A stretch of 63,770 nt of DNA, counting the filler, from Asterionella formosa (taxonomy: Eukaryota), in the NCBI GenBank assembly GCA_002256025.1. It is 19 parts of 19 records of this genome, joined end to end, with 100 filler letters (N's around TTAATTAATTAA, not from the genome) between each part and the next. Parts side by side here need not be neighbours in the genome. Positions count along the whole stretch, not along the records: positions 25,869 to 46,196 come from NKIB01003392.1; 18 more parts are not named here. One strand, 5' to 3'. Under the pieces are notes generated by a model. It did not search any database. It saw nothing but the letters and a program-made list of their open reading frames with translations, and had not been told where the DNA came from. Below, in pieces: positions 20,601-43,470 of the stretch (position 1 is the first letter of the stretch; every line of letters starts with the position of its first letter). The position numbers and the translations under genes were made by a program.

Positions 20601-21689
20601 CTAGTCAACATCAGCAAAGCCCTCATATCCAATGCTCTTCCAGGTATTGGTGATTGTTTGAATTGAGACTCTAGCCCATGCCATCTCTACCCATTGTGCA
20701 ATGTGGTGCCTTTGCACCTTGGGATTATCCACATTGGCAACCATGTAGTCTTCCCAATATCCTCTCATGTAGTCCTTGAAGGGCTTATTAACTCCTACAT
20801 CCAACACTTGAAGTCTAGATGTGTAGCCTGGGAGGACGAAATCAATCTCAGTGCCGCAATTTTTAATTGCATCAACACAACGTCCTACCTTGTGGACAGT
20901 AAAATCATCCATAAGAAGGTGAGTAGGCTCACCGCCTTTTCCCAACGCAAATGGTTGCCAAACTTTTTCGATCCATTGTAAAAATATGTCTGTATCAACC
21001 CAAGCTTTGGGTTGACAAGCGTATTTAATACTGACCGGAAAAAGTTGTTGATTGTTGTCTAGTAATCCCAATTGCCTGGAAATACGTCCATCCCTTGTTC
21101 CTGTAAATACAATGAATGGTGGCAACTTCTCACCACTCATTGTCACCCCTAACAACACAGTGCAACGATTCGAATTTCCTGTTGTTCGAAGCCCAATGGT
21201 CCTTTCGCCTCGGGTTGCCAAAGTCTTTGATCCAAACATGTCAAAATTGATGTTTGTCTCATCAATATTGACAATGTTTCCAGCAGGAAATTCGAACGCA
21301 GCAATTTGATTGTTGACGTAGGAAACAAAATCTTGAATTGTCTCCTGATCCAGCCTTGTATTTTGGGCGACACGAGTCACACGCCTAATGACAATGTCCT
21401 CACGGGCAAGCCAGCGCTTGATCCGTTTTTCAAGTGCCTTCAGCGACACATTTTCGTTCCCAGGTTGCCTCTTAAGCTCAACACTGAGCATCCTGGTGGT
21501 GCAGGCCCTATCTTGAAGCCGCAACTGGTCAAAAAGAGTCTTCAATCCTTCGAAATCAGCAGCACTTTTTGGAGAGCGGCCCGGGTGAGCGATTTTTTTC
21601 ATCAACACCTGCCTCTGAATCACACCTTCTTCCTGCAGAGGAATCTCCGCCACCTCCGCCGGAACCACAACCATTGCACCATCCAGCAT
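20601..21689 (-). CDS. pogo/DDE_1 transposase (DD35D); the frame stays open to the contig end
   Basis: IVNIDET, GEKLPPFIVF, KAWVD, LLMDDFTVH and PGYTSRLQVLDVGVNKPFK. There are 35 residues between the 2nd and 3rd Asp. Confidence 0.95.
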   Translation of the reverse strand: MLDGAMVVVPAEVAEIPLQEEGVIQRQVLMKKIAHPGRSPKSAADFEGLKTLFDQLRLQDRACTTRMLSVELKRQPGNENVSLKALEKRIKRWLAREDIVIRRVTRVAQNTRLDQETIQDFVSYVNNQIAAFEFPAGNIVNIDETNINFDMFGSKTLATRGERTIGLRTTGNSNRCTVLLGVTMSGEKLPPFIVFTGTRDGRISRQLGLLDNNQQLFPVSIKYACQPKAWVDTDIFLQWIEKVWQPFALGKGGEPTHLLMDDFTVHKVGRCVDAIKNCGTEIDFVLPGYTSRLQVLDVGVNKPFKDYMRGYWEDYMVANVDNPKVQRHHIAQWVEMAWARVSIQTITNTWKSIGYEGFADVD

Positions 21690-22534
21690 GGACTTCCAGC
21701 TCCGGANNNNNNNNNNNNNNNNNNNNNNNNNNNNNNNNNNNNNNNNNNNNTTAATTAATTAANNNNNNNNNNNNNNNNNNNNNNNNNNNNNNNNNNNNNN
21801 NNNNNNATTAACATGACAGGTTGATTAACATTTATCATTAGATTCAAGAACTATTGGTCTTACGAATACAGATACTGTATACTGGTACTTCATTGTCCTG
21901 GATCTCCCCCAATTTACACTGCCGTGACTGAATTTCTAGATTGATTTTACTCATGGGTCCAGGACAATGAAGATATTTCCCATATAATACCAATATTAAG
22001 CCTAAGTATATTTCATTAGCTCTACAGGGTAGCGCACATTTTTCTAAGATGCATTAACATGACAATTATTTCCGTGATGTGAAAAATGAGAGATTTCTTG
22101 AGAATGACGCTTTTCGATTTGGTCCGTATATCATACACAACATAGAAAACACAATCGTAAAAAAGAATTATTCTAATAAAACAAATATTAAAATCTAAAT
22201 TAGAGACGCAAATGGCACAATTTTTCATCAAGTTTATGGATGCACAATTCAAAACGACGATGCTCTGAACGGATTTGACATTGTCACAGTAGCTGCGCAA
22301 TCACTCCAACAACGACTATAACAATACCATGATAGAATGCAGGAAAATAAGTGAAACAATTGGTTGTTTGTATCGACGCCGCAAAAGGATGCATTGCATG
22401 CCTTGGGTTTCTTGACAATGCCCCCCCCCCAATTGTGTGAAGGGAATTTGTTCGTAATGCATAATGCACAAAAATCACAGCATGATTTGATTGGCTTGCA
22501 GCGATTNNNNNNNNNNCCCCCCCCCCCCCCCCTA

Positions 22535-22800
22535 GTGTTGTCACAGTAAATGACATTCATATTCACTTTGTGTCCATGTGCTTCAATAAATAGTTTTGTC
22601 CACAACATCTTTGATAAAATGTCGTCAACACCAACTAATTCTGCTTCAGTCGAACTCTCATGTTCGCTTTCTGTTTCATAGACACTGAACAAATAATTCC
22701 TTGTCCAAATGACAATGTAACTCCTGTGTAACTTTTAAACTCCTTGTGGACTGCAAATGCAAATGCCACATCTATGTACCATTTTTTTAATTTTGCTGTT
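22535..22800 (-). mobile_element. Degenerate Ty1/Copia RNase H fragment
   Basis: KWYIDVAFAFAVHKEFKSYTG...KQK / SSTEAELVGVDD...LWTKLFIEAHG...IYCDN, frameshifted. Confidence 0.85.
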
Positions 22801-23160
22801 CCATTGCTTCCAAAATCATCATTCTGTGAAAGTAATGATAGTGCTAAATCTTCATCCTTGTCATCAAAGACTGTTGGTTCGAAGAAAGGAAAATGTTTAT
22901 CTTCTTCATCCAATCATTTCCATCATTCCTCTGCTATGGTACAACCCATACATGTAAAGCAGTACTCAGACTGAGCATAAGGAATTGATACCGATCTGTT
23001 ATGTCATATCTGATGAAATCCAAATCAGCAGAATTTATTAGCGAAATCTGCAGAATCGGCNNNNNNNNNNNNNNNNNNNNNNNNNNNNNNNNNNNNNNNN
23101 NNNNTTAATTAATTAANNNNNNNNNNNNNNNNNNNNNNNNNNNNNNNNNNNNNNNNNNNN

Positions 23161-24099
23161 TCATTTGCTTGTTGGAATTGTCCGTTGCCTCAAACTTGCT
23201 TGGCGTGTGCGTGCACACACTGTCGACTTGTTTTCAATGGTATGTTGTTCTTTGTATTCACTGTTGAACTTGTCCGCATCTTTGTTAACATCAATAGAGC
23301 GACAAGTGGGTCTCTTCATTGTTGTTTGCTCCTGAAAAAGTCGGTGTCCGTGTCCGTGTCATCCTCATCAATAGAGAGACAAGTTCTTTCGTTGGAAAAA
23401 TTGGTACCGTTTCATCATTCGCTCGTTCGAACCACTGTCCGTTGCCTCAAACCTGATTAGCGTTTGAGTACTGGTACCCGGTATGTGCACTGTCGACTTT
23501 AGTACATTACAGGCGGAGTGACTTCGCTACTAAATTGCGTGATATAATAATATACCCTGTAGCACGATGCAGAATACAGTTGCTTCCCAATCATCTCATC
23601 ATGATTGATAAGATGATACTGTGATATCATGATAAGGTTACATCGATGCATACATCACCAAAGTATGATACGTAATATTGAATAAAAAATATCACAGAGC
23701 TATGATACATTGATAATAAAATTATGATGATTTTATAAAATGTTTATGATATAATTTTGATCAAAATATGATCATGTAAAAATAGTACAATGACAATAAA
23801 ATACGATAATATATGTGCGCAAGTGTTATCGATACATCACAGAATATAAATCAAGCAATCATTAAGTATGTTAATTAATATATGTGTTTGTCGTTTAATG
23901 TATACACTTAAAGTCAACACTTAATATGATAGTATTATACAGTGGATAGGATCTAAGTATACGGATGCGTTGATATGTACATCACTATAATATGATTTGT
24001 GACGTGATGGATTGATGCATATCACATACCGGTATCCTCAACAACCAGCCATCACGTTCATTGTTGTGTCGTCTTTCCTTGTTTTAGCTATATATATGC
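23161..24099 (-). repeat. Dispersed AT-rich repeat family (copy 1 of 3)
   Basis: The reverse complement matches about 62765-63693 and about 60896-61069 at high identity. Confidence 0.92.
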
Positions 24100-26664: not shown

Positions 26665-27579
26665 TTAGCTATCGTGATTGAAAAAAAAAGTCGAAGGAGT
26701 GCTTGCTTGAGCTGATCCAGATTGGCCAAGGCCTGGTACAATTTCATGGTAAAGCTCAGGAGGAAGAACTAACCGAAGCTCCTCTTCGATTGGAGGATGA
26801 TTACCAAACATGGCATCGAATTTGACGGCAAACTCATCTGCAATACCAAAATCTTGAGCAAGTAACTTGCCTGGGGAAGCGATTTTCTCATAGAAAACCC
26901 GAACAATCTCGTGTCGCATTCCAGGATCGATTCCTATCCCTTCGGTATTCTTATATACCTTCAACACACTCTGGTAGACCATTCTCTTGTTATTTCTTCT
27001 TTCTGTCCACAATCCTGGCACGCTCCAAAACTCAAGTCCTCGCCACGTGTGACCAGCGGCGATCCACAGCTTGAATATTTCCTCGTCTATTCGTCCGGGA
27101 TCAACCTGATTCATACGGGAATGATATATACGGTAGAAAACTTTGGCGTAATCAAAATAACTACGATTGCAAGTGTAAGATTCACGAATTGCCTTTGCAA
27201 TATACTTTGCGTTCTCCTTCATCATGAGGTACTCATCGTCTCGCCACCACATACTGGCCCTTTGTCCATCGCTAATATCCGACCAATGAATGACGAGAGG
27301 GTTGACTTCAGCTTCTTGTCCTTCTCTGAATCTTACTCTCTTTATTTTATTGATCTTATATTGCTTCATTGATGAGTCCGCCGTTGATAGGCACGATTGC
27401 GAAGCTACAACCACCTTGCTTTTTTCACATGAATCAGGTAAGTTTTCTACCTCCTCGGCTTTATTGAAGTGTGTCGTGTTCATACTGTATGTTGTAACTA
27501 TTTCCTCGCTCTGCTCATTCAGAACGATTTCTGACAGCTTCTTGGTAATTAAGCGTTGTTTGGAGAGGTGTGTTGCCAA
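26665..27579 (-). CDS. Diatom-type hypothetical protein with RVxF and RGLE motifs (304 aa)
   Basis: KRVRF...MWWRDDEY...WRGLE...SVLKV; intact intronless ORF. Confidence 0.75.
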   Translation of the reverse strand: MATHLSKQRLITKKLSEIVLNEQSEEIVTTYSMNTTHFNKAEEVENLPDSCEKSKVVVASQSCLSTADSSMKQYKINKIKRVRFREGQEAEVNPLVIHWSDISDGQRASMWWRDDEYLMMKENAKYIAKAIRESYTCNRSYFDYAKVFYRIYHSRMNQVDPGRIDEEIFKLWIAAGHTWRGLEFWSVPGLWTERRNNKRMVYQSVLKVYKNTEGIGIDPGMRHEIVRVFYEKIASPGKLLAQDFGIADEFAVKFDAMFGNHPPIEEELRLVLPPELYHEIVPGLGQSGSAQASTPSTFFFNHDS

Positions 27580-27896
27580 TAAAGTGCTGATGAAGGAAAA
27601 TACAGTAGTGTTGGTGCTAAAATCTTTGCATTGATTTTCTTTTTTTTGTTCCGAGCGACTGGTCGTCTAATTTTATGTAATGTACATACCGCAACATCTA
27701 TGTATAATCAGGAGTATATAATGTGTGTAGGGAGCGGACAAATATATCAAAAAGCAGCCTGCATCGCTTGGGATCGCTTTTTGTTTCCACCACGAAATTC
27801 TTATTACACTTACCCGCGGTACCAGGTTCCCGGCAGTCGAACTGGATTGTACTGGTACCAGGTAGTATATGCCAGATAAGGTTACTCAAAGTAATA

Positions 27897-28022
27897 GCAA
27901 GTTGCGGTCATTTTCCTTAAATAAACAATTGCCGCAACTTTTGGGCATTTTGCTTAAATAAACAACTTAATATAAGATAAAGATAGCTAAGTTTATCACC
28001 GAAGCACAGTTACCGCAACTTT
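27897..28022 (-). repeat. Short MITE-like element; inverted homolog at about 40620-40727
   Basis: Ends AAGTTGCGGT...ACCGCAACTT. The reverse complement AAGTTGCGGTAACTGTGCTT..TTAGCTATCTTTATCTTATATTAAGTTG aligns to 40638-40700. Confidence 0.6.
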
Positions 28023-28741
28023 CAGTACCAGGTACCTCGTACCAGTTATCAAATGATCTGATTCATGTCCCATAACGGTACTGTACTTATAAATATTCCC
28101 CGAAATGTCCTACCGGTATGAAGAGCAAATTGTGTGCTTCGGGTGTGGTGTGAATTTCATATTCGTAACAATTTTATCATACGTATTTTTGCAACAATTT
28201 TATCATAGGCACTTGAAGCAACAATTTTATCATATTAACTTGTAGTTTTGATCCCTTAAAAATGAGTCACACACACCGGTACTTGAATCATTAATGGTGC
28301 TACAAAGAGAAGCACTTCATGTGCATTGGTGGAATGGCTGGCGTTTAAATTGATTTCTTTTCGCAAAACATTTGGACAGCTGTTGTACCAGGTACCCGGT
28401 AGTTAAGTATCAGTATCATGCCTAGAATTCTATCTGAGTACCTGGTACCAGTATCGTTTCATGATGCCATAAAATGGAGCAACACATATTTTGACTTATG
28501 AATAGTGCTACAAAGGGAAGCGATTCATGTACCTTAGTTGAATGGCAGGTGCTTATAATGTCTATCTTTTCGCCATGTGGTCGTTCAGTGTGGTTTTCAT
28601 CTTGGATTCCACTTGATATCATTGATTGCATCATGTGCGAATTGATTACAATCATGATTCAGTATTACTAAAAGGATAAAGATTGGTACCTGCTGGTGGT
28701 AGACTAATATTACTTTGTCTTCGCATTATGTCTAGGAAATT

Positions 28742-29809
28742 CTAATTATAGCCCAACTCATCATTGATTTGAGCTATACACGCCAGCGCTGCTTCATGTG
28801 TGTTGCCTTGCGGCACCACTGGTAGGTAGTTGTATTGATGAATCCACATTTGTGTAATCCACTTTTCATCCATTGCAACCTCCCCTTTATGCAATGTGCG
28901 ATCGTCAGGTCGGCCATCCTTAAATGCCGGAAAGAACAACAAGGCTGAACCCTTTTTGGGTTTCATAGTGAGCAGTTGACCGTCGGCATCCTTGAGATCT
29001 CGGAATATGGTCCCCCCACCTCGTGAGACATTATTGAGATATACCAACAATGTCATAACTCTCTGGCCACCATTCTTCAATTGAGCCGGAGGAACTTCAT
29101 CGTAGTGCCACGAGAATTCTTCTCCAGTTCTATATCGAACAATTTGAGGTTCTTCCATTTGCTTGATAGGAATTCCAAGAACTTTATGTGCTTTCGCCAA
29201 GAGGGTTGGCATTTGCTCATAGAAACAAAACCACGATGTCGATGTCCGCTTGGACTGTGCTAGAGGCGAGAAAGTTGCCGAATCCACTTGCAGACTATCG
29301 CTGGCGCATTGTGTGACGCCCTGCACATAAGCGCATTCGTCGTCTGAAAAGAAATGGTCAATGGCCAGAACTGGAGGCGATTGATGTAGCATACGAATCG
29401 TCATTGGTTTTCTTCCTGGTGAAGGATGTTTCTCGGCTCCATTATCATCAAATCTATCTAGCGTCAATGGTACATGATCCCTCAACGCATTTTCAATCGC
29501 TTGTTTGGTAGTTTGTGATGGAGCTGAAATCAATTCAGTGCCTGGAGGCATGTACGGAAATATATCTTCTTCTGTCGGCGGTGGCAGACCCCACTTGTCT
29601 AGCTTGGTTTCGGCTTTTTCGGAAGATCTTGGCGATAGATTCTCCATTTCTGACAAGCCCCTCTTCTTTCGCTTGGGTTTGCTTGGACTTTTGGACGACG
29701 CTCCAAATCCACCAGAAAATGCGATCTGACGGTGTGGATGGGAACCATTGACCTCGCATAGTATCAACAACATCATGGATATTCCTTTTAAAATGCGTGA
29801 CTTCATCAT
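28742..29809 (-). CDS. Prolyl 4-hydroxylase-like 2OG-Fe(II) oxygenase with signal/targeting peptide
   Basis: EPQIVRY...WHYDE (HxD), GQRVMTLLVYLN, GGGTIF, TLHKG (distal His) and KWITQMWIH. Confidence 0.9.
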   Translation of the reverse strand: MMKSRILKGISMMLLILCEVNGSHPHRQIAFSGGFGASSKSPSKPKRKKRGLSEMENLSPRSSEKAETKLDKWGLPPPTEEDIFPYMPPGTELISAPSQTTKQAIENALRDHVPLTLDRFDDNGAEKHPSPGRKPMTIRMLHQSPPVLAIDHFFSDDECAYVQGVTQCASDSLQVDSATFSPLAQSKRTSTSWFCFYEQMPTLLAKAHKVLGIPIKQMEEPQIVRYRTGEEFSWHYDEVPPAQLKNGGQRVMTLLVYLNNVSRGGGTIFRDLKDADGQLLTMKPKKGSALLFFPAFKDGRPDDRTLHKGEVAMDEKWITQMWIHQYNYLPVVPQGNTHEAALACIAQINDELGYN

Positions 29810-30989
29810 GCGGGCGATGTATAGAGAATGGAATGCAAAGGGAAGGATGAAACCATTGGGTTGAAAGAGAAGAAATATTTGAGTTTCTGATCCATCATAC
29901 CGTACGTACCGTACCAGGTAGTATTTTCGTCAGAGTAAAATTCATGAACTCTTGTGTATCCAAGAGTCTGTTGTTGGTACCTGGTACCAGGTGAAAGGTA
30001 CCAGGTAGTATTCTTCACTTACCGGTATTATTCGACAGAAAAATCTAGCAGACTACCGGTAGCTATGTACCCGCATATGTACCGGTATACACCGGTACCA
30101 GGTACCGGTAGTGGAAGTTACCGTAGTGCACTACCGGTAGTAATTAATTAGCACCGTGTATAAAGCTAGCAGTAGAAAGGGAAGAGTATACTGGTATATA
30201 GCTTACGACTGATGCATTGGGCACGACAACCAGGTATGGTACCAGGGTACCGTAATCATTACATTACACTCTGAAAATTGACAAAATACCGATAATTGCT
30301 ACATAGTGTAAATATTCTGAGGATGTGATTACTGCATGGTAATGGCAAGTCTTGAGGCATCTTAACTGGGGGTGCAAGAACATGTACTGGTAGGCTACCA
30401 TTACTCTTTAACAAACTATACATAGTGCAACAGCAAATCTTTAAACACCAATGTCAATGTAATATCACGAATATCAATGTAATATCATGCATCCTCATAG
30501 CCTTCTCACAGTGTAAATAAATATATGAGCATGCATTCTGATTTTTGAAAATGACCTAATTTGATTTAACCCCATTGGATGGTGTAGGCCTCGTCCAAAG
30601 TATATCAGCAATATCCAACTCATCGTCAGAATTGAAATTTACGCTCTTATATTGCGAAGGTGGCAAAAACGAGAGAACAAACAGCATATGACTGTGAATT
30701 TCAGGAAATCATTATGAATTTCAGGATAAATAAGTAAACATTAGGAAATGTGTCAGGAGATGTCAGCAAATTTCAGGAAATGCATGGAATTTCCTGAAGT
30801 CTCAAAAACTTGCTTTAGTGAAAAAACCACCTACCCTTCATTCTAGATTAAAAGTACTGGTAATGGTTACCGGTAGGATCAATTGAAATACCGGTGGCGG
30901 TGTTACTAAGTGATTGTAAATATATAAATACGGTATTTATTATTACCGGTACCCTGGTACTGCCTACCGAATACTAATCTTTTATTTCC

Positions 30990-32711
30990 ATGTTGGATTG
31001 CAATGAAATCCGACTTATTTGGCATCGACGAGATTTGAGATTGCATGACAATCCCCTGTACAGCAGTGACAACGAGCAGCACAGAACAAAGAGTCTTATA
31101 CTGTCGGTGTACATTTTCGATGCCGCATTTTTCCGACCAAGGCCATCCATCTCTACATCATGTGATGCATGGAATACTGTCGACGTTGGCCCCCATGCAG
31201 CCAGGGTCTTACTAGAGACAGTCTCTGACCTTCGAAAAAATCTCCGATCCAAAGGAAGCGAATTACTTATCCGATACGGCGATCCATTGGAGATACTACC
31301 CAAGCTAGCAGCTGCCATTGGAGCGAAGGAAGTGTGCTGGAGCGAGGAACCAGGAGTGTACGAAGCCAGGTTATCAAGAAAGCTGCAACTAAAGTTGAAG
31401 GATCAAGTGCTAGTTAGTACCTATTGCACATACACACTGTATCACCCAGATGATTTGCCTCGAGGTTCGAATGAATGGGCCCAACTAGCTCACCCAAAGC
31501 AAAAACGATCTAAGAAGCCGGGGATGGGAAAACCACCTCAAGGCACCCAAAAACATAACAACAACACGGAGGGGCCAACAGTCGTTGCCAAACCAGTACA
31601 GGTTCAATATGTAGTTGATGTATCAACAGAAAGGTTCAATGGCGCTCCAAAAGTCATGGGTGACTTTCGTCGAGCATGTCGAACATTTAAACCCTTACGT
31701 CCGAGTCTACCATCTCCAAGCACTTTGGAAAAGCCAGACATTCCCGAGCATATTGAAATCGGAGATTTACCATCCCTGTATGACTTAGTACGACCGCTTT
31801 TGGATTCAAAAATTCCCATACTTGGCATGCGTCAGGACATAATACACGAAATCGTGGCATCTGCTCAAAGGCTGTCCGAGTCAACAGATCCTTGGATATC
31901 ACGAGGAGGAGAAAGTCAAGCCATCCATCGACTTGATCATTTTGTCAACCACGGACACGCAAAAAGCGCCGATCGAAGCTTAGCCGAAGTTCAAGGAAAT
32001 GGAAGTTCCAAGCTATCTGTTCATCTTGCCATGGGATCAATATCACCACGCCTTATTACAGAAATGGCCAAGAAAGCGGGAGATGACTGCTCATGGCTCA
32101 TTAGTCATTTGGAAATGAGAGATTTTTTCTTGTACTCTGCCATAATTTATGGCCACCGTCTATTTCACATTGACGGCATGCCTGTGAATAAGAAAGCAGC
32201 AGGTTGTCTACAATGGAATTCTCCAACGTCCAACCCTTGCATCAAAGACCACTGGCAACGCTGGGCATTGGGACATACAGGCCTTCCCCTTATTGATGCA
32301 GCAATGTCAGAGCTCCGAGCCACGGGATATTGCTCCAATCGAGTGAGACAAAATGCAGCTAGTGTATTGACCAAAGACCTTGGCATTGATTGGAGAGCTG
32401 GAGCAGAGTGGTATCAACTTTTGTTGGAAGATCATTGCGTTGGTGCGAATTGGGGCAACTGGATGTATTTTGCTGGTGTCGGTAGTGATCCCAAGCATCG
32501 GCATTTTCGAACTGTGTCCCAAGCTAGGCGGTACGATCCCCATGGATCCTATGTGAGCAAGTGGATACCTAGATTGGCTTTGGAAGCCGATATTGAGGTG
32601 AAACTGCGACCTTGGAACTTTCTCGATGATTGGGGCGATGTAATTGTTGACCCAATGACCCAATACACATGGCACGATCTTCAGAAACTTGATGGTGATA
32701 AAGCCATCTAG
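30990..32711 (+). CDS. Cryptochrome/photolyase family protein, CRY-DASH-like (573 aa)
   Basis: WHRRDLRLHDNP, GGESQA, SSKLSVHLAMGSISPR, SNRVRQNAASVLTKDLGIDWRAGAEWY, ANWGNWMYFAGVGSDP and QARRYDP. Confidence 0.93.
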   Translation: MLDCNEIRLIWHRRDLRLHDNPLYSSDNEQHRTKSLILSVYIFDAAFFRPRPSISTSCDAWNTVDVGPHAARVLLETVSDLRKNLRSKGSELLIRYGDPLEILPKLAAAIGAKEVCWSEEPGVYEARLSRKLQLKLKDQVLVSTYCTYTLYHPDDLPRGSNEWAQLAHPKQKRSKKPGMGKPPQGTQKHNNNTEGPTVVAKPVQVQYVVDVSTERFNGAPKVMGDFRRACRTFKPLRPSLPSPSTLEKPDIPEHIEIGDLPSLYDLVRPLLDSKIPILGMRQDIIHEIVASAQRLSESTDPWISRGGESQAIHRLDHFVNHGHAKSADRSLAEVQGNGSSKLSVHLAMGSISPRLITEMAKKAGDDCSWLISHLEMRDFFLYSAIIYGHRLFHIDGMPVNKKAAGCLQWNSPTSNPCIKDHWQRWALGHTGLPLIDAAMSELRATGYCSNRVRQNAASVLTKDLGIDWRAGAEWYQLLLEDHCVGANWGNWMYFAGVGSDPKHRHFRTVSQARRYDPHGSYVSKWIPRLALEADIEVKLRPWNFLDDWGDVIVDPMTQYTWHDLQKLDGDKAI

Positions 32712-33134
32712 ACCCACAATGAAAGGGACCATCGATTTAGGAATCACCATTTATATAGTTGTGTGGAATAATTGTTTCCAAGTGATTTTAAATTACCTCG
32801 CCAAGTATCGCTCACAATTATTTTGAGGCATACTGTAAATACGGTCAAGATGGACCATGACAAATATTTTTTGTTTTTTATTGCCTTGAATGAAATCTCC
32901 ACTCAAAAGAATATCGGTATTGCATCAATACAGCGTTTCAAATACGGTTGATGTACTCTCTAAATGGCAGCTCTATTTTATTTGTTTGCAAATTTTAGGA
33001 GGTTGGTCACCCCCACCCCCTTCCCCTTCTTGATGAACAAAAAAGTGGTCTTAGACCAAAAAGGGCGGCGCCGCCGATAGGGTGCAGTATTATTTAATAG
33101 CGCCGCATATTTTCTCCATCTACGTTTTGAATCA

Positions 33135-34733
33135 TTAGAATCTGGTGTTCACGGTAGAAAAGTCGAAGGGCGCGGCGACAGGGCTCATTTGTCCTTGGCT
33201 GCCAAACAGGTTTTTGGGCGCCGGTGCGCCGAACGAGAACACATTGCCATTAATGGCAGGTGCAAGGTTTTCGTCTTCAACCTCTTCTTCCCCGAAAAAA
33301 CGTTCAATCATATTGATCGCTTTGTTATAGATCGTATCGTCAGTGTGCTGCTGGAGTGCTTCAATCTTATCGATGCCTCCGTATTGATCAAGCAATGTGA
33401 CAAAGTCCTGGTTATTTCGTTCACCAACAACAAGGATGTTCTCAATAGCATCTAGAGCGGCCACTACAAGTCTATTCTCTCCGGGGATGTCTAAGACATT
33501 ACACATGGCTTCAAGACCATCGGCTTGTACAAGACTTTGAACGTGGAAGTCGTTGCCACCCGTGAAGATATTAGAAACGGACCAAATTGCTTCCTTTCTT
33601 ACATCCCATCCTTCATTCTTTGCATTTTCGACAAGAAGCTGAATGATCTTTCTCTGCTTGAAGACGCTTCCAATTTGCGATTGTGTTCCCGCAGAAATAT
33701 TGGATAAAAGCCAGCATGTTTCCTTACGGATAGCACGCTTCTCATTTTGTAGTAGTTTCACGGCAATTTCCAAGACACCAGCATCAATTACTGCCTGTGT
33801 CTGTTGAGCATTGCCAGTGACAAAATTACCTGCAGTTCTTAGGGCTGGAGTGAGAAGCTTTGGGTTGCCTTCATCAAGTATTTTAACCACAATTTTCGTG
33901 CAGTCCGTGTCCATGACGGCCTGAATACGTTCATCATCGCCATCGCTTGCGTATGATAGGGCCCAGAGAACATCGGCAAGCATATCATGTTTCGACTTCA
34001 TCGTTTCGTCAGCTGAAAGAGAATTCAATAGCCAGGCAAGCCCAGGTAAGGCGGGAGCAATCAATGCAAGATCCGGCTGTGGTTTTCCACGACAAAGATT
34101 GGATATAGACCACGTTACATTTGCAAGAAGGGTTTCGTTTGCTGGTTGCTCAACATTCAAGAGGAGGGATGGGAGTGCGTTAGCCTTCAACACCATATCA
34201 CGATACATTGCACCATCTCCTGAGATATTTCCAAGGCACCATGCTGCCTGTTCCCTAACATTTTCATCGACAGAGCGAAGGAGAACTACCATTGGCTCGA
34301 TGACACCAGCTTCCACAACATCGCATGTGAAGTCAGTAGACGCGATATTTGTGAGAGCCCAGGCGGCTTCGAAGACAAGCTCTCCACAGTCCAATCTACT
34401 AAGTACAGCGATGAGCGGAGCGATAGCGCCGGCTTGAATCACGTCTGCAACAGGCGGGTTGGTCGAAACAGACAGCATGCGACGGATTCCTCGCACAGAC
34501 TTAATAAGTGTTGGGAAATCAGAGTCACCGTTCCTGATCTGGCCCACCAGCATAGGAAGATCAGTCGTAAAGTATTTGTCTTTGTCTTCGAATTGGGCTA
34601 TTGTCGACTCTGTAACAACACTTCGTTTCTTTAGGAGCTGCTCATTCTTCTTTGTCTTTCTGATTTGGATCCGCGTGTCTTCTCGGCGGCGACGACCATC
34701 ATCAACAGAGACAAGCTTCTTGTGTTTGTCCAT
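33135..34733 (-). CDS. Importin subunit alpha (532 aa)
   Basis: IBB domain RRRRED...IRK...KKR, ARM repeats FEAAWALTNIAS, REQAAWCLGNISGD and WSISNLCRGKP, and C-terminal KIEALQQH. Confidence 0.97.
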   Translation of the reverse strand: MDKHKKLVSVDDGRRRREDTRIQIRKTKKNEQLLKKRSVVTESTIAQFEDKDKYFTTDLPMLVGQIRNGDSDFPTLIKSVRGIRRMLSVSTNPPVADVIQAGAIAPLIAVLSRLDCGELVFEAAWALTNIASTDFTCDVVEAGVIEPMVVLLRSVDENVREQAAWCLGNISGDGAMYRDMVLKANALPSLLLNVEQPANETLLANVTWSISNLCRGKPQPDLALIAPALPGLAWLLNSLSADETMKSKHDMLADVLWALSYASDGDDERIQAVMDTDCTKIVVKILDEGNPKLLTPALRTAGNFVTGNAQQTQAVIDAGVLEIAVKLLQNEKRAIRKETCWLLSNISAGTQSQIGSVFKQRKIIQLLVENAKNEGWDVRKEAIWSVSNIFTGGNDFHVQSLVQADGLEAMCNVLDIPGENRLVVAALDAIENILVVGERNNQDFVTLLDQYGGIDKIEALQQHTDDTIYNKAINMIERFFGEEEVEDENLAPAINGNVFSFGAPAPKNLFGSQGQMSPVAAPFDFSTVNTRF

Positions 34734-35255
34734 TCGCGATAGTTCTTAAAATATGAAATAGGATCGAGCAATAGATGAGTGAAATTGTGCTGATTTGGAA
34801 TCTGTAAGTAATCCAAGAACGGACAAGCGCCACTGTTAATGATCCCTTGTCGACCCTTTCGATCTCCCTTGTATCCCGTAATCTGTGAAGCACTTCACTT
34901 ACCTGTTGGCTTGCTCATTTTACTTTCTTAATATTCGTGATGTTGATGCGTGGTAGAAGGAGTTCTTTATAATTGTGAGGAGCGATAGATGTTTTGCTTC
35001 CAATAACGACATGAGGGAACTGGCGATTTGTGTGGTACAGATGAAATGTGAGAATCCATGTGTCTCACAATACTAGTCGTTGGGCGGTTATATGCAATAT
35101 CGAATGTTTTGGAATTGATTGGTCCAAATTTCAAAATAGGAACACCCCCCAGAACGTTTAGTCCTATGTATGTATCAGCCTGTCTTCCATACCGGTAGGT
35201 ACCAGGTACAATCCTGTCGGTTTTATGATCATCCACGCACCACTCAGAACTTCCT

Positions 35256-35550
35256 CAAGATTCAATTACCAGTACACTTTGGTTCTACTGTATCATATAC
35301 GGCCGTAGGCAGTACCCCGAGTAGCACAGACGACAAAGCAAGAGGAACACCGAGACATGCTGTCGGTGGCTGATGCTGTGCACATCAAAACAAGATTTAA
35401 TTACCAGGTCACTTTGGTACTACCATAGATGTAGGCAGCACTCTGAGTACCGGTAGCACAAAAGACAAAGCAAGAGGAATACCGAGACATGCTGTGGCTG
35501 GCTGTACAATACCTGGTACCTGGTACCAGTACCTGGTACAGTACATCAAA
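35256..35550 (+). repeat. Diverged 135-bp tandem duplication in the importin/GAPDH divergent promoter region
   Basis: CAAGATT(C/T)AATTACCAG...GTAGGCAG...GACAAAGCAAGAGGAA.ACCGAGACATGCTGT at 35256 and 35391. Copy 2 is expanded by TA-motif insertions. Confidence 0.9.
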
Positions 35551-35836
35551 CTACCGGTACGTCTGGCGGTCAAATCAGCAAATATCACACGGAAACCAAT
35601 AACCAATTCGTCATCACAGATACCGACACCACAACGTCACTTCATCGCGTCACATGCGAAGCTGAATTGTTGACACCTCCTACTTCTGGCCTGATACTTT
35701 TGTGAGTGATGCGATGAAAGCGTTCCCATCTGCTTCTGTGAAGTTCGCTTCAGTGCGGTTCTCATATTCGTTGCTTGCCGCAGAAGGATCCAAACAAAAG
35801 GAAAGATCATAAAAACAGGAAACTGCCACAAGATAA

Positions 35837-36971
<1,135 letters not shown>

Positions 36972-37236
36972 ACTCAAAAAGTTTTAGGAACAATGCAACA
37001 TCAAAACAATAATATTGTAAGGAATATTTAGAGCAGAACATAAGCCTTTACTATATGTCAGGGTATTCACGGCTAAATTAGGTTGTCGTCCATTTCTTTT
37101 CCGTTTGTATGAAGGCAGAAGTCAACGCTTCACTCCGCGTAATATTTGAATATACAGTCTGACACAGAATTACAATAACGCATTCTCTAATATAGCAGTA
37201 TCCTCCGCCCGTGATTGTTTCACGAGCCAACGTCGC

Positions 37237-39981
37237 TCATTCCTTCTGTTGAGAAATAACATCTGCGCCTCGGGATGCAAGGTTGGACAGAGTCCGCGCC
37301 GCTGAATTTGTAAGCTCATCGGACAACTCATCATGCTTTAACGTCGACTCTATGTTCGCACTTGCTGTCTTGAGTAATGACGAAGCAAACTTCCCCCCAA
37401 GTTGACCCACTAGTGGAGCATATAGAGGTACATTCTCACGAAGTTCCTTCATTACCAAGGCCGCTTGTTCTGGGTCAAATTGAAGAGATCGAGCAGCTTG
37501 TGTCGGAACTCCACCATCAACCATAATAGTACCGGTCAGTGATGGTGCCACTTGTTGAGGGAAGAAGCTTGAAAATTTTCCTACTAAAGCCTGAGCTTGT
37601 TCTTCAGATTCCGTTTTTCTCAAGAAAGGCTCAATTCCGCCTTCAATAGGTAAAATAGGAAGAACTCGGCCAAGTCCAAGAGGCAAGGCGTCGCGGAATC
37701 GCCGAGGACCATCAATAAGAGTATCGCGAAGGGCATCTTTCACGTTTGCTGATGTCGCTAGGACACTCTCTTCTACTAACAAGTTTTGTACCATGTTGCC
37801 GTCCTTGGCAAGGAGAATATCTGAAGCGTCCTTGGCCAGTGTAATGGCAGCTTCCGTATCGGCGAGAACATTTTTGCTATTTCCTACCTCTGTGGATGTT
37901 GTTTCAATACTCTTTGTATTTGTTGTGTACTTTGCAAATCCGTCAGCTAAATCCGAGAGTCGTTCGGCATTCACAGCATTACCTGTTCCGTACAACAAGT
38001 CACGAAGGGCCTTTTGTGCCCTTGGCGAATCATCTGCGACCAAACGCTTTGCCACATAAGGAAAGCAGCTTTTGATAATACTATAATTCTCATCAGCTTG
38101 AAGACTAACTCCTTCCAAGGTTAAAAAAGCGCGTGATGTGTAAACAAACCATGACGGAATAGAAAAGGCATCAGCATTTCTCTTTTGCAGTTCTTCCACT
38201 TCCATGGTAATTCCCGTAACAGCCGACGCTCTCTGTCGAGATTCTTCCATTTGCTGCTTCATGTCATCTCTCATTTGCACTCGCAATTCCTCATCCGACA
38301 AATCGGGATATCGGTCTTTAAACTCCGAAACGATACGATCACGCATTTTATCAGCTCCACCACCCTGACCAGCTTGTTTGAGTATGTATGTGAGTGGTTC
38401 GAGAAATCCCGACGCACGAACAGTATCCAATCGCTCTGCCTTCAAGAATCCCAACTGTACCAAGTCTTCTGGAATTCGGTCAAAGTCTTCTCCTGTTAAA
38501 TGCGCGACAAACTCCAATAGTGAGTACTGTAGTGTGGGTTCTGTTTCCAACGTCATTCCAAAGTCTAAAATACAAAGTCTCCCATCGGTTGTAACAAGTA
38601 AGTTTCCAGGATGTGGATCACAGTGCAATGATTGCAATTCCAGTAGCATGACAAGGTATGCATTCAATGCCACAGAGCAAAGCCTGGGAACAGACGCTGC
38701 ATTACTTTTGTCTAATCGGACTCCGTCTACCCATTCCGTCATTAGAATTCTGTTGGTGCTGTATTCTGGCAGCACAATGGGTGCTGTTACGGCCATCAAA
38801 TTGCGTTTGATCATTTCTTCATTGAATCGCATGGTGTTTGCAGCTTCTAATTGATAATCCAACTCGGAAATAAAGCCACGTCCCCACTCATTCGCCAGAG
38901 AAGAAAAGTCTGTCGCCGATCTCGTCCACCATTGATAGAACGGTGCCAAGTACTCCTTCACTAGGTACAAGTCAAGTGCAATATCACTGAGTGCATTTGG
39001 CCGTTGAATTTTCACAGCCACGTCCGTTTGTCCTATACGTGCCTTGTACACTTGCCCAATCGATGCCGATGCGACCGGTTCTCGGGTCATGTCCTTAATT
39101 TGCGCATATTTGGCAGCCCCCAATTCTGCCTCCAACAATGCCTTGGCTTCCTCGGTATCAAATGGTGGCACTCGGTCTTGCAATGTCGCTAGAGCGGTTG
39201 CGTATTCTGTGGGGATCAAATCAGGTCGCACCGACAGGGCTTGTCCTACCTTGATGGCCGTCGGTCCTGCCGTTTGAATGAGCTTGAGCAATTCTTGCGC
39301 CCGTTGTTCTCTGGGCTCTTGCTTCGTTATGTATTTGTCAATGATAACATTCAAAAGGAAGGCGTTGGATATACGAAACAGTTGCAGCGACCGTTGAATA
39401 AGAATCATGGGATGCTTGGAATAATATATGCTCGCCTGGAGTGGATCATAGTCCCCCCGTTGGTAGGGTTCGTAGCCTTGCCTAAAATTGTCCGGCGGGT
39501 TGGATAAGTTGGTGTAGGCAGCCGTTAGTATGAGTTGCAGTGGCAGAAGCGCAATGGAGAGCTGCACCCATCCGTCGAGTGCAGTAAAGGCCTGGAGTAG
39601 ACTGTCTAGTATGGTTTGTATCTGCGCGACTGCGGGTCCTGGAGTGACCAGCTGCGTCCATTCAATGCCCCGAACGTCCTGGGCGAGTTCCGACAAGAGG
39701 TCCTTCGTCATGGCCTTGTCAACCAGCGCAGCGACATCTGCCCATGAGTCATCGAGCGATAGTTGCAACGTCGTGGAAGAATGGGCAGCAGCAGCTGCTG
39801 ATGCGGAATGGTGCTGACGGCGACTCTTCGTGTGATGCGGAACAAGCGGAAACGAAGAAACAATCCTGCAAGAGGACAAACTACCAGAGAAGAATACGAG
39901 GACTGCAAGAGCCAGGGCTCCGTTCCTCGACTTGTCGGCCATCATGACAGTGCAGTACCGGTACGCAATCACAACTGACAA
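37237..39981 (-). CDS. ABC1K/UbiB-family atypical kinase, probably plastid-targeted (true start may be about 39945)
   Basis: IKVGQALSVRPD, VASASIGQVY, VAVKIQRP, HCDPHPGN and LDFGM. Signal peptide with an SSF junction plus a Ser/Ala-rich transit peptide. Confidence 0.93.
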   Translation of the reverse strand: MSVVIAYRYCTVMMADKSRNGALALAVLVFFSGSLSSCRIVSSFPLVPHHTKSRRQHHSASAAAAAHSSTTLQLSLDDSWADVAALVDKAMTKDLLSELAQDVRGIEWTQLVTPGPAVAQIQTILDSLLQAFTALDGWVQLSIALLPLQLILTAAYTNLSNPPDNFRQGYEPYQRGDYDPLQASIYYSKHPMILIQRSLQLFRISNAFLLNVIIDKYITKQEPREQRAQELLKLIQTAGPTAIKVGQALSVRPDLIPTEYATALATLQDRVPPFDTEEAKALLEAELGAAKYAQIKDMTREPVASASIGQVYKARIGQTDVAVKIQRPNALSDIALDLYLVKEYLAPFYQWWTRSATDFSSLANEWGRGFISELDYQLEAANTMRFNEEMIKRNLMAVTAPIVLPEYSTNRILMTEWVDGVRLDKSNAASVPRLCSVALNAYLVMLLELQSLHCDPHPGNLLVTTDGRLCILDFGMTLETEPTLQYSLLEFVAHLTGEDFDRIPEDLVQLGFLKAERLDTVRASGFLEPLTYILKQAGQGGGADKMRDRIVSEFKDRYPDLSDEELRVQMRDDMKQQMEESRQRASAVTGITMEVEELQKRNADAFSIPSWFVYTSRAFLTLEGVSLQADENYSIIKSCFPYVAKRLVADDSPRAQKALRDLLYGTGNAVNAERLSDLADGFAKYTTNTKSIETTSTEVGNSKNVLADTEAAITLAKDASDILLAKDGNMVQNLLVEESVLATSANVKDALRDTLIDGPRRFRDALPLGLGRVLPILPIEGGIEPFLRKTESEEQAQALVGKFSSFFPQQVAPSLTGTIMVDGGVPTQAARSLQFDPEQAALVMKELRENVPLYAPLVGQLGGKFASSLLKTASANIESTLKHDELSDELTNSAARTLSNLASRGADVISQQKE

Positions 39982-40577
39982 TGATGCCGGAGGTGAGGTC
40001 TACAGTGGGTATGCCTTTCTGTTGTTGTCAGTATGTGTACCGGTATACCGGTAGTCGCTATTTCCGTGATACCAGTATGTCGAAAGAAATAATAAAAACT
40101 GGTCACAGGCAGAAATTGTCATTTTTCACGCACAGCCGACGAAGACGTGACGAAAAAAGAAGAAAGGAGAAGATGACGTGTGACTAGCCGATGACTAATT
40201 AGCAGAGTACCCGGTATGTATGTATGAATACCGGTGGTACGCTGGTACGTGGTACCAGGTAGTCTATGTAGTTGAACAATGTAAATGCTTATGTACCTAG
40301 TATACCCAGAGTACCCCGGTACCAGGTACCTGGTGCCTGGACCAAATAGGCAAGAGTGACGAATGTGATGCAGAAGCAACATATGGTGAGTCAGTCCATT
40401 TGCTTTACTCATAAAATTAGAATGATCGTCACTGCTTGTACCAATACCAGGTACCAGGTACCCGGTATGATATCGCTCCATCAGCAGCAGATAAATAACC
40501 CATCCTCAGCCAAATCACATGCAATAAGAATGATCCGACTGTACCGGTACCAGGAACCTGGTACGGTACCGGTACCA

Positions 40578-40727
40578 GGTGGTGCCAGATACCTGCAAGT
40601 TGCGGTAATTGTGCTTTAAGGTGGTGCCAGATACCTGCAAGTTGCGGTAATTGTGCTTAAACTAAAAGTTTAGCTTCCTTTATCCTACATTAAATTGATT
40701 TTTAAAGCCAAAATACCGCAAATTGCC
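40578..40727 (+). repeat. 42-bp tandem duplication plus MITE-like element
   Basis: GGTGGTGCCAGATACCTGCAAGTTGCGGTAATTGTGCTT occurs at 40578 and 40620, with a TTAA at the junction. The sequence continues into the homolog of 27897-28022. Confidence 0.75.
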
Positions 40728-41059
40728 TTGTACCAGTTACCAGGTACCTGGTCCCATTATAATCACTACATTCACAGGATATTCATACAGAAAATATAAA
40801 GCTATGATGATTTTCTTGGCAACCCAAACGTCCTGTCGTTGCTTATGGCTGTACAAATATTGAAGTCAAATCTGGTTCAATTCCTGAAATTTTGGGGTTC
40901 ACACATTTTCATGTCTACCGGTAATCGAAACTAGCTATTTAACTTGCATCCGCAATAATGGTTGTATAGACTAAATCAGTCATTTATTATGTCAACCTGG
41001 AATTAGCAATAGCAATGTTATCATAAAGTATCAAGCATGATGATGACAGCGTCCTGTCA

Positions 41060-42382
41060 TTAAAAACCTAGACCAAATTCATCATCATTGAGGGTCTTGC
41101 GTGGTTTGTTTTTTAGCAAAGACTCATATTTGCCTCCTGTATATTCTCCTCCCAGCTGGGTAACAGCATTGTAAGCAATGCCCAAATCCTTCAAGTAGCT
41201 TAGATTTGACGACCCATACTTGTTTAACCAAGACTGTGCTGTGGGGTTATCCTTGTCCAACAAGACAGCTCCAATCCAACCCACGTTTGTCACTTCTCCT
41301 GTGCCCCCCTTTTTCATGCTTAACCCATTCAACTCCTTCAAATACTTGTTGAAAGACTTTTGATCAATCCCCGAAGACACTTGTTGGCCAAATGCTTGTT
41401 CTCTTGTTCCAAATGAATCAGCAATGTACCATCCATCATCAGGATCTTCCTCATAATCGTCTTTCGCCATGGCATTGAAATCTTCATCTGTCAGCTTTTT
41501 GTAATCACTCATACGACCCATTTTGCCACGTTCTACATACTTGGCTCGCTCTTTGGGTTTCACAGCATCCGTCGGCACTTGCTCCAACGTCAAGAGCGCC
41601 CCCAACAAAGTGGTCATTTCTCGTTCAGTCAAGCCCGCCTGCCGAAAGACCCTGTTCACTTCCTGGGGTGTAGCTTTCCCATTGAACAGATCCAACGGAA
41701 TGGTGTTGGGCAATTCCACCCCCTTGGGAGGCTCGGTTCGTCCCAATTGGACTGACAGAACAGGTCCCCCAATTGACTCAATGGCCTCTGCTCCAGCAAT
41801 GGCCACAGCGTCCGGAATTGTAATGGCCGTATACTTGGTTAGCGCAATACTGGCTTGAATCAGCACAGTGGATGCTTCTTGCAACAGTTTCGTGTACTCG
41901 TCCTTGGGTTCGCCCATGGACAGGGCTCGACGAACCACACGTCCGTCGGGACCATATTCTTTCGTTTTGATATTGTACGAAAGGCCATCTAGCAACGCTA
42001 ATTGGAAAAACGATGGCGCGAGCTTTGGATTCTTGAGAATGGCTTGTCGGACACGTTCGCGAAGTGTGTCGACCGCAGCGACGCGATTTTCTTGATCACC
42101 GTACATGGCCGGATCCAAGTAGACGGAAGCAGAGGCAGATGCCGTGGGTAACAGAAGCACACTACTAGCAGCTGCTGCTGCTGTTACCAAGGAGGAGTAC
42201 AGCATGTCTCGGCGAGACGCGTCCAACGATGTTGTTGTAGGACAACTACCGGTACTTGACGTGGTTGTAGAGACGGTGTTAGTCACCCGCCTCATTGGAA
42301 CATAAAAGGCGCTACTGCTGAGAGATGATGATGTGCCTGCTAGCAACAGCAGCAACCAGGCTAGTTCCAGGGAGCGAACCAT
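41060..42382 (-). CDS. Thylakoid lumen TL29/APX4-like peroxidase-fold protein (440 aa)
   Basis: Signal peptide + SSAF, transit peptide, twin-Arg SRRDML...ASA. PSFFQLALLDGLSY...GPDG and DAVAIAGAEAIESIGGP...LGR fit the class I peroxidase fold without the distal Arg/His. Confidence 0.8.
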   Translation of the reverse strand: MVRSLELAWLLLLLAGTSSSLSSSAFYVPMRRVTNTVSTTTSSTGSCPTTTSLDASRRDMLYSSLVTAAAAASSVLLLPTASASASVYLDPAMYGDQENRVAAVDTLRERVRQAILKNPKLAPSFFQLALLDGLSYNIKTKEYGPDGRVVRRALSMGEPKDEYTKLLQEASTVLIQASIALTKYTAITIPDAVAIAGAEAIESIGGPVLSVQLGRTEPPKGVELPNTIPLDLFNGKATPQEVNRVFRQAGLTEREMTTLLGALLTLEQVPTDAVKPKERAKYVERGKMGRMSDYKKLTDEDFNAMAKDDYEEDPDDGWYIADSFGTREQAFGQQVSSGIDQKSFNKYLKELNGLSMKKGGTGEVTNVGWIGAVLLDKDNPTAQSWLNKYGSSNLSYLKDLGIAYNAVTQLGGEYTGGKYESLLKNKPRKTLNDDEFGLGF

Positions 42383-42759
42383 GTTCTTCTTCTTGTGCTT
42401 TCACTATAATGTCGTCTTGAGGTGATCTGAAGGGAGTGAGAAGGGCCGTGTGACAAGCAAAGTGTAAACAAATCTATCTCCCTGATGCCTTGCCCTCCGT
42501 CAGTACATGTAAGCACAGAGTCAGCAGCATCATTCGTATACCGGTAGACACCCAACAACTCGGCCACCCCGGCCAATGTTCGCAAAAGGCATCATCACGA
42601 CAAAGCCCCGTGACGAGGAATACCGGTATGTAAAGATCCGATGACATACGAAGTAACCCTACCGTACCAGGTGCTCCTCTGTCCAAATAATACCGGTAGT
42701 TGAATCGATTATCGATTACATAGATGTGAAAATATACTCTATTTCTGTAATTAAAGAAT

Positions 42760-43470
42760 TAGGCCGTAGCATCTGAATAAATTAATCGAAACCAATTTAA
42801 CATACATATATCTTTATTGTGCACATCTTGAAATTTTTGTGCTACATATAATAAGCACAATCCAGCACCCTCCCAGAAGTTTTTCCAAAGCTTTTGCCAA
42901 AGCAACTCTGCAAATGGACAATGTAGCACAGCGTGATTGAAGTCTTCATTGAGCCTGCTGCTGTGACACTGGAAACAACAATTGTCCACACTTTTGTCAT
43001 ATTTGCTTCTGCGCTGGAAAGTTGCCAGTAGATCAACTCCATGTTAAATATTATCATTTTCTTCGACCCTATCATGTCTTTTATTGCTTTGGACCCTGCC
43101 TTCCAGTCCAGTCCATCTTCTCAAAACCATAGTAGCAAGTAACCCTATCCTGCTAATTTCATAATGTATTTTTCCATGACCGCCTGCTTAGTATAGCTAT
43201 GACGCATTTCTTACCGCTAAAGGTAACTGTTTAATGATAAATATATTTCCGATTTGTTATCAAGTAGCTGAGTGTTCTGGATGGAGTCGATAAGATTTCT
43301 CTTTTTGGGAATGCATTTATTGCACTCTTGAACTAAGGTGGCCTGCTTATTGCAGTCACAATTGAGCTGAGCCTGCCATGGTAGTTGATCATATGTACTC
43401 TTGTTAATCTGATGAGACTTCATGTGATGGGGTGGTAGTTGAGATGAAGTACTACTACCACTCAATGAAA
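42760..43470 (-). mobile_element. Degenerate non-LTR retrotransposon (RNase H end + C-terminal zinc knuckle)
   Basis: HMKSHQ...WQAQLNCDCNKQA and CFQCH...EDFNHAVLHCP, with many stops. Confidence 0.65.

Follow-up and report, generated by a model that had tools for sequence, protein, structure and literature searches.

Tc1/mariner transposases insert at TA dinucleotides and duplicate the TA, and, in the account given by the available portion of PMC7827188, their cut in the non-transferred strand falls a few bases within the element, so that the donor flanks keep 3' overhangs, which end joining turns into footprints. A comparison of Asian and African rice counted, in the accessible part of that study, 94 excisions genome-wide, 8 of them clean, with insertions and excisions in a ratio of roughly 2:1 and 74 of 160 gene-associated polymorphisms lying upstream of genes (PMC4423477). 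Footprints of Stowaway MITEs (transposable elements of the miniature inverted-repeat kind) are described as natural polymorphism near genes of the Triticeae in the sections available of PMC1925063, and the cyanobacterial motif HIP1 (GCGATCGC) is, according to the excerpt at hand of PMC13756078, a palindromic octamer hugely over-represented genome-wide. Here we describe two classes of short TA-bounded palindromic motif, TACCGGTA and TACCWGGTA, in 63,770 nt of DNA from Asterionella formosa (GCA_002256025.1; the whole stretch analysed is called the window), and in particular a promoter at 35256-35560 in which such motifs can be compared between the two copies of a duplication and between strains.

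The window is a concatenation of 20 contigs, in which neighbours are not neighbours in the genome; the joints are 100-nt spacers (44 N + TTAATTAATTAA + 44 N) at 1256-1355, 21707-21806, 23061-23160 and 15 further places, and the thirteen contigs from 46297 onwards are about 1,250 nt apiece. The locus under study lies inside a 20.3-kb contig (25869-46196), where 35256-35560 falls in the divergent spacer of 1.1 kb that separates GAPDH, on the plus strand, from an importin-alpha gene on the opposite one. Parts of the stretch were present in 20 of the 24 public runs listed (16 studies), and because these are labelled as algae or as freshwater, lake or riverine metagenomes, the source organism is a freshwater eukaryotic alga. 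The locus had been singled out in an initial annotation of the window, whose claims are taken up where our results bear on them.

The promoter duplication and indels between strains

The promoter contains a tandem duplication of about 135 nt, recognised from two direct-repeat families, one 52 nt long with 90% identity and one of 33 nt with 88%, at spacings of 132 and 135 nt, and pairwise alignment of its two copies gave a mean column identity of 79%. The features of the duplication and of its surroundings are as follows.

35256-35390, unstranded: duplication copy 1, in which GAG-TA-GCACA, with just one TA, corresponds to 35448
35391-35509, unstranded: duplication copy 2 until the array start, from the direct repeats and the pairwise alignment
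35448-35455, unstranded: TACCGGTA in copy 2 (GAG-TA-CCGG-TA-GCACA), a clean 6-column gap against copy 1
35510-35543, unstranded: array TA-CCTGG-TA-CCTGG-TA-CCAG-TA-CCTGG-TA-CAG-TA, 34 nt, read from the sequence
35552-35559, unstranded: TACCGGTA directly past the end of copy 2, from the motif count
35190-35208, unstranded: chain TA-CCGG-TA-GG-TA-CCAGG-TA in the same promoter, from the chain listing

The initial annotation had described a duplication of about 135 bp with a gain of TA to TA-CCGG-TA at 35448-35455, and the alignment reproduced this exactly. We additionally aligned strain contigs of four runs to positions 27501-43000; the results given here are those of the rows listed, and 79 more indel rows and 114 more joints exist. 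In the single-copy contigs of strain X6 (records 20-23; 5,536 nt) we counted 28 single-letter differences from the window, or about 0.5%, and X9 showed 56 in 2,905 nt. The sole X6 contig at 35448 (record 23, 35297-35545, depth 30.8 of 30.8) lacks six letters (2+1+3) at 35445-35452, and without them reads as a plain TA, the same as copy 1. With CCGG+TA absent from copy 1 as well as from X6, TACCGGTA at 35448 is a derived insertion at TA.

Comparable indels were found at further places, together with a more complex difference in the same promoter.

30868-30875, unstranded: TACCGGTA, six bases of it missing from the sole contig of X9 and from one of the two of X6
62769-62776, unstranded: TACCGGTA in a dispersed repeat, also in a second copy of the repeat at 60901-60908
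35416-35427, unstranded: a net +7 difference in X6, with CAGG inserted behind 35420, TAT behind 35423 and A>G at 35427

The motif at 30868 stands in the context GGT-TACCGGTA-GG, with no neighbouring unit for slippage. Absence is probably the ancestral state there, X9 being treated as outgroup because it carries more single-letter differences than X6, a step that draws on its larger divergence. The third copy of the dispersed repeat (about 24080-24094) has an uninterrupted TA run that is exactly six bases shorter than the copies at 62769 and 60901; this pair was left unpolarised, and polarity was assigned at 35448 and 30868 only.

The indel thus equals one core plus one TA, the six nucleotides CCGG+TA, at 35448, at 30868 and at 62769/60901 against 24094, and the longer allele appears to be the derived one at both polarised sites, at 30868 with X9 as the presumed outgroup. 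Clean 6-nt indels at three independent loci, two of them polarised, bear out the claim of the initial annotation that the motifs arise as core-plus-TA insertions at TA, and the polarity, for which it had proposed a check of this kind, runs in the direction that it expected. Stepwise substitution or slippage from an adjacent unit, which it had set against its own claim, is not the source of the 6-nt indels, because an adjacent template is missing at those sites. The difference at 35416-35427 creates TACCAGGTA in X6, which the window lacks there, and altogether motif events make up three of the nine separate indel events among the rows listed.

The array at 35510-35543 behaves otherwise. Its letters are as the initial annotation gave them, but it is not a clean insertion against copy 1, since the alignment of the copies needs a 30-column gap plus mismatches, and with the array collapsed to one TA copy 2 is still unlike the ATGCTGTGCA of copy 1 at that spot. 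At 35510-35544 Tandem Repeats Finder reported two periods, one of 7 with 4.4 copies and 83% matches and one of 13 with 2.3 copies and 94% matches, the 13-nt period occupying the second half of the array (35516-35544). Contigs with unrelated flanks align to 35510-35543, 39 in X6 and 45 in X9, and an X12 contig over 35455-36931 (record 4) is a net 13 letters shorter than the window. The 13-nt period and this 13-letter shortfall, the position of which within the contig is not shown, point to some slippage, which probably contributes inside arrays. Stretches uncovered in X6 (37324-39391 and others) and numerous joints with sides of 20-24 letters are repeats of arrays from elsewhere, and neither entered the evidence for excision.

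Abundance, placement and anatomy of the motifs

Dinucleotide-preserving shuffles of the window contain TACCGGTA 0.30 times on average and TACCWGGTA 0.18 times, where the window itself has 37 and 25 copies; none of 100 shuffles reached 37 or 25, respectively, and the two are the top over-represented 8- and 9-mers under an order-3 Markov model. The palindromic octamer TACCGGTA is therefore over-represented by orders of magnitude. We also tested 838 words of the form TA-X-TA within the window, among them those with the following cores.

CCGG: observed 37, expected 0.64, rank 1
CCWGG: observed 25, expected 0.62, rank 2
CCAG/CTGG: observed 20, expected 2.66
CCAGGG/CCCTGG: observed 5, expected 0.11
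CCCGG/CCGGG: observed 5, expected 0.24

The initial annotation had suggested such a count of TA-X-TA words against a Markov background, and, run on the window, it placed CCGG and CCWGG first and second. CWG, which the annotation had also named as a motif core, showed no enrichment, falling outside the 45 most enriched of the 838 words, with TACAGTA present 5 times and TACTGTA 12 times. As a separate observation, TAGCTA (TA-GC-TA) has 20 sites against 8.5 expected, and TTAGCTAA stands at 3.9x its expectation; this excess may be another TA-bounded palindrome class or something unrelated.

Along the 20-kb contig the motifs are distributed very unevenly.

Promoter-containing spacers: 6,876 nt, 37 motifs (5.4 per kb)
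Two convergent 3' spacers: 697 nt, 0 motifs
Coding sequence: 9,009 nt, 0 motifs

The motifs are confined to non-coding DNA, and TACCGGTA is found also within dispersed repeats and in an intron. The genes on either side of the promoter, and the intron copy, are these.

33138-34745, minus strand: importin-alpha gene, left flank of the promoter
35856-36971, plus strand: GAPDH gene, start codon at 35856, two exons, intron at about 36525-36668
36538: one further copy of TACCGGTA, in the GAPDH intron

A search for RNA genes at 34700-35900 returned no tRNA and a single sub-threshold Rfam match (20.3 bits, where the gathering score is 48.5; E = 0.39). The dispersed repeat mentioned above is AT-rich and longer than 930 nt, with three partial copies (62690-63700, 23161-24094 and 60829-61067) that are 94-97% identical, each end at contig ends and have internal TACCGGTA copies in common. 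At 63383 one copy carries TACCGGTA where another has a form 7 nt longer.

The two motif classes differ in their surroundings. No context extends past the TA of the 37 TACCGGTA sites, none of the 8 flank positions holding more than 0.12 bit, and 33 of the 37 are isolated, without a neighbouring unit. A TA is shared with another unit in 4 of 37 TACCGGTA sites against 17 of 25 TACCWGGTA sites (Fisher p = 4.8e-6), and G precedes the TA in 40 of the 50 half-flanks of TACCWGGTA. Because CCGG units are isolated and CCWGG units are clustered, a single process does not cover both. Two or more units were present in 19 of 113 chains, with mixed cores (CCGG, CCWGG, CCCGG, CCAGGG and CCG); eight CCWGG pairs are adjacent, and these have the same W in three cases and a different W in five. 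At 32 oriented TA|CCAGGT sites the sequence diverges immediately downstream, so these sites are not truncated ends of a long element.

TACCGGTA is present in 37 perfect copies, and the 11 one-mismatch classes, the CpG-transition class excepted, together hold 21. That class, the CpG-to-TpG forms TACTGGTA/TACCAGTA, has 20 copies, 7.5x expectation (e.g. 9029, 11877, 13373, 1603 and 18485). The motifs are young and polymorphic. As CpG is depleted in the window (observed/expected 0.76) and TG (1.25) and CA (1.22) are in excess, we infer that TA-CCAG-TA is decayed TA-CCGG-TA rather than a separate footprint type. The CpG value of 0.76 and the excess of TACTGGTA/TACCAGTA also hint, in their own right, at cytosine methylation or at least at fast CpG decay.

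Candidate elements in the window

Two copies of a MITE lie on the 20-kb contig.

27893-28025, unstranded: MITE copy 1, with GCAAGTTGCGG-type inverted ends; distance to TACCAGGTA 37 nt at the left end, 1 nt at the right
40575-40729, unstranded: MITE copy 2, with an internal 42-nt duplication and motif arrays on either side

The MITE is abundant in the strains, its bins reaching depths of 1,647 (at copy 1) and 2,377 in X6 against about 30 for single-copy sequence. Its four ends lie 37, 1, 140 and 9 nt from the nearest TACCWGGTA, three of the four thus within 40 nt; with random placement, 3 of 100,000 trials achieved this closeness at both ends of both elements, and one point chosen at random falls within 40 nt of TACCWGGTA in 3.5% of cases. 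The left end of copy 2 has two candidates, TA|CCAGGTGGTGCC at 40575 or TA|CCTGCAAG at 40592, about 17 nt further in. Both candidate termini TA|CCTGCAAG and TA|CCAGGTGG start with CCW, as does TA|CCAGGTGGTGCC, a part of which both MITE copies have in common. The left flanks of both copies also have TACCAGGT-GT..GCCAGATA in common, and a consensus of loose ends from 20 X6 and 15 X12 contigs, in which TA|CCTGCAAG appears as it does at one of the four window ends, reads ..TACCTGCAAG... An element with CCW ends had been postulated in the initial annotation, and this postulate fared unevenly: a TA-flanked MITE with candidate TA|CCW ends does sit in the arrays, but its true ends are ambiguous, one of the four reading CCT.

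A metagenome scan with the MITE end returned four loci, L001 to L004, of which L001 is unrelated, L002 and L003 are one locus from another organism, and L004 is without the motif. In L002 (1447-1478; the same in L003) a related element end, TGCAAGTTGCGGTAATTTTGC, directly follows TACCTGGTA, and the contig, from that other organism, holds no other motif in 2.1 kb. Scans of viral contigs with the array pattern and with the MITE end (3 and 6 loci, respectively) gave matches that we judged to be due to chance, with no MITE structure and at most 4 motifs in 6 kb. We also scanned the window for TA-flanked inverted-repeat pairs sharing their first two bases and at least 16 of 20 positions; the 12 pairs found included no new TA|CC..GG|TA element, and most of them belong to a family with ends in TTAA. 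At 17089-18120 and 18119-19349 (related copy at 11858-12960) lie repeats whose inverted ends of about 20 nt, AGGTTSCTGCATTTGAACCC, abut TTAA; the two long copies are 81% identical, which suggests a second cut-and-paste family with TTAA as its target.

A transposase gene lies on another contig.

20604-21704, minus strand: open frame of a pogo-type transposase, 367 aa, DDE_1 (PF03184, E 1.1e-22), cut off by the contig end at 21706

Judged from this frame, which looks intact to the contig end, a transposase of the superfamily is encoded, and the initial annotation was right to place a pogo in the window. A form of 419 aa is 97% identical to it, and a cluster with 79 member sequences is 99% identical. 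Helix-turn-helix families are present in addition in relatives of 385-460 aa, and a 685-aa relative has PF03184+PF03221+PF05225, the set typical of pogo. The 'CCGTA-ended pogo' of the annotation stays a guess, because the ends of the element are not definable at the contig end. A link between the pogo end and the MITE was considered and not established, the common stretch being an 11-mer (E = 2). Between the transposase gene and the presumed element end, a 145-aa open frame (19924-20358, plus strand) matches no Pfam family, and three ACCGGT-containing sites fall within 70 nt (19898-19965) just upstream of it.

Two features elsewhere in the window were also recorded. Positions 1-1255 hold a tandem satellite, roughly 6.7 copies of a 188-nt period at 87-92% identity, that occupies its entire contig. 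At 22400-22535 long C runs flank a 10-N gap, and G8/C8 words are at 10x expectation in the window; the C runs may be assembly gap edges or homopolymer tracts.

Origin of the motifs and comparison with known systems

The motifs are core-plus-TA insertions at TA, without further context in the CCGG class, and they are associated with a high-copy MITE. We consider it reasonably probable that TA-CCGG-TA and TA-CCWGG-TA are excision footprints of TA-targeting cut-and-paste elements (Tc1/mariner/pogo elements and MITEs), because this origin fits the two main cores, the duplication of TA, the missing context, the young age of the copies and their link to the MITE. Such an origin presumes an element once at each site, and the identity and cut geometry of that element can be reconstructed only conditionally. 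An element with CC(W) ends would insert at TA and duplicate it, and its excision by staggered cuts would leave two or three terminal bases on each flank. End joining would then yield TA-CC+GG-TA if two bases per side were kept, and TA-CC-W-GG-TA if three-base overhangs overlapped by one base at W. Each scar would add a TA, and with insertions concentrated in promoter-containing spacers the scars would pile up side by side; CpG decay would turn CCGG into CCAG/CTGG, and slippage would reshape the longer arrays afterwards. The iterated cycles of insertion and excision proposed in the initial annotation receive support from the core-plus-TA insertions at TA and from the MITE in the arrays, but no pair of element and footprint alleles was seen, and CCGG and CCWGG are unlike one another.

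Several observations weigh against a footprint origin. Among the rows listed, no locus has the element in one allele and a footprint or an empty TA in the other, and in the window scars outnumber element copies by at least 20 to 1. The isolation of CCGG and the clustering of CCWGG call for a second element, an element's preference for GG-TA-CC as its target, or slippage. The six-base cores CCATGG and CCTAGG, in which both 3-nt overhangs would be fully kept, occur 0 times in the window. One of the four MITE ends in the window reads TA|CCT beside the conserved core, the others reading ATA, CT and CAAG, and agreement within the loose-end consensus is just 0.49-0.59. The pogo element is cut by the contig end, with no definable pair of terminal inverted repeats, and has only the 11-mer in common with the MITE. 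The CCAGG event of X6 is complex, comprising either two indels and one substitution or one 7-nt insertion, of CCAGG+TA after GGTA, with two substitutions, and we counted it merely as motif-creating. In rice, as reported in the accessible part of the comparison, 8 of 94 excisions left a clean footprint, and uniformity of the kind seen here is not the rule (PMC4423477). Since six-base cores are absent here and clean footprints are exceptional in rice, uniform scars would be a property of this organism's repair.

A mutational process other than transposition might also write such motifs, either by templated insertion during break repair through TA microhomology or through a sequence-specific nuclease followed by fill-in. 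At 5.4 motifs per kb of promoter a template is usually found within a few hundred bases, as at 35552 and 35190 around 35448, and the small changes that make up the X6 difference at 35416-35427 are clustered, as error-prone repair would leave them. Templated repair would, however, give varied inserts, where those that we saw repeat the same 4- or 5-base cores and each come with a duplicated TA; it would leave the tight association with MITE ends unexplained; and we know of no process that writes motifs by repair in this way. We regard an origin of this sort as unlikely. The 37 motifs in promoter-containing spacers against none in coding sequence and convergent 3' spacers, and their palindromic form, could instead point to selected cis-regulatory or structural promoter elements, for example a palindromic factor-binding site, although many cut-and-paste elements favour promoters as well. 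Selection fits poorly with the very fast turnover, two window motifs being absent and one extra present in strains about 0.5% apart, with an origin by indel and TA duplication rather than by substitution, and with the occurrence of motifs in the intron (36538) and in dispersed repeats. It strikes us as improbable; it concerns retention, moreover, and is compatible with an origin as footprints.

Replication slippage of a 7-nt (TACCWGG) or 13-nt unit, as in an ordinary minisatellite, would account for the periods of 7 and 13 that Tandem Repeats Finder detected at 35510-35544, and could account for the X12 contig that is 13 letters short over 35455-36931, the location of those letters not being shown, and for the same W in three of eight adjacent CCWGG pairs. 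As the maker of the arrays it is nevertheless very improbable: 33 of 37 TACCGGTA sites are isolated, the 6-nt insertions have no adjacent template, the arrays mix their cores, and adjacent pairs carry opposite W in five of eight cases. Homogeneous arrays with new units beside an identical unit, as a slippage minisatellite would have, are not what the window displays, and slippage is likely a secondary process, not the origin. The arrays might otherwise predate MITEs that home to them, or the motifs might be short end remnants after internal deletion. The ends of the MITE do sit in arrays, and with TACCAGGT-GT..GCCAGATA in both left flanks part of an 'array' may belong to the element. The 32 oriented TA|CCAGGT sites diverge at once, which is unfavourable to remnants, and homing leaves isolated CCGG+TA insertions unexplained; we give either version little credence.

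If the motifs are excision footprints, one may go a step further, which we do tentatively and with some doubt, and picture a 'hit-and-run' family of TA-targeting elements that rarely gains copies and jumps often, its uniform rejoining making scars the top words of the genome. Scars would then have a density of about 1 per kb overall, rising to about 5 per kb in promoters, and arrays would stack since each scar gives new TAs in the preferred GG-TA-CC context. They would arise at about one tenth of the rate of single-base change in these spacers (in X6, 3 motif events against 28 single-letter differences).

Should this hold, the genome would contain a eukaryotic, insertion-made counterpart of bacterial highly iterated palindromes and a steady source of promoter variation, and footprints, usually seen as rare by-products, would be a dominant mutational input to promoters. 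The scars would alter the spacers upstream of GAPDH, importin-alpha, a photolyase-family gene and an ABC1-type kinase, in which strains about 0.5% apart differ. They would preserve, beyond the lifetime of the elements, a natural record of past transposition, with a measurable, sequence-specific mutation rate, and would offer a test case for the end joining of transposase-made breaks in an alga. They would also explain an extreme k-mer bias that might otherwise be mistaken for a regulatory code.

The excision footprint as a kind of feature has long been known; its scale and arrays here are unusual. In the literature that we searched on this motif and on footprints, we found no report of these motifs, none of footprints as over-represented words genome-wide, and none of footprints that are top words, stack into arrays, reach about 5 per kb of promoter and vary between near-identical strains. 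Like the footprints of Sleeping Beauty and mariner, in the available portion of PMC7827188, the algal motifs have a duplicated TA around a few bases, which may be the terminal bases of an element, and fit production by end joining, and CCWGG, with either A or T at its centre, has a parallel in the C(A/T)G scar of Sleeping Beauty type that the initial annotation quoted. The algal scars differ from those footprints in being the most over-represented words of the sequence, in forming arrays, in their promoter density of about 5 per kb and in outnumbering elements, and their cores are CCGG and CCWGG, from candidate elements only. As in the rice and Triticeae catalogues, so far as the accessible parts of these go, footprints would be a source of natural polymorphism near genes; unlike those in rice, the algal scars are uniform, far denser and stacked on one another.

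The 367-aa frame of the window resembles pogo-type transposases, in which DDE_1 is combined with N-terminal helix-turn-helix domains, in its match to DDE_1 (E 1.1e-22), and differs from the described ones in that this copy is cut by the contig end and that its link to the scars is a candidate only. HIP1 lies inside genes and is tied to DNA methylases. The algal TACCGGTA resembles it as an iterated palindromic octamer, and the likeness is limited to that. In contrast to a HIP-type motif, which would stand in coding sequence and originate by substitution, the algal motif is absent from the 9.0 kb of coding sequence (0 in 9,009 nt), is made by TA-duplicating insertions of 6 nt, and turns over between strains.

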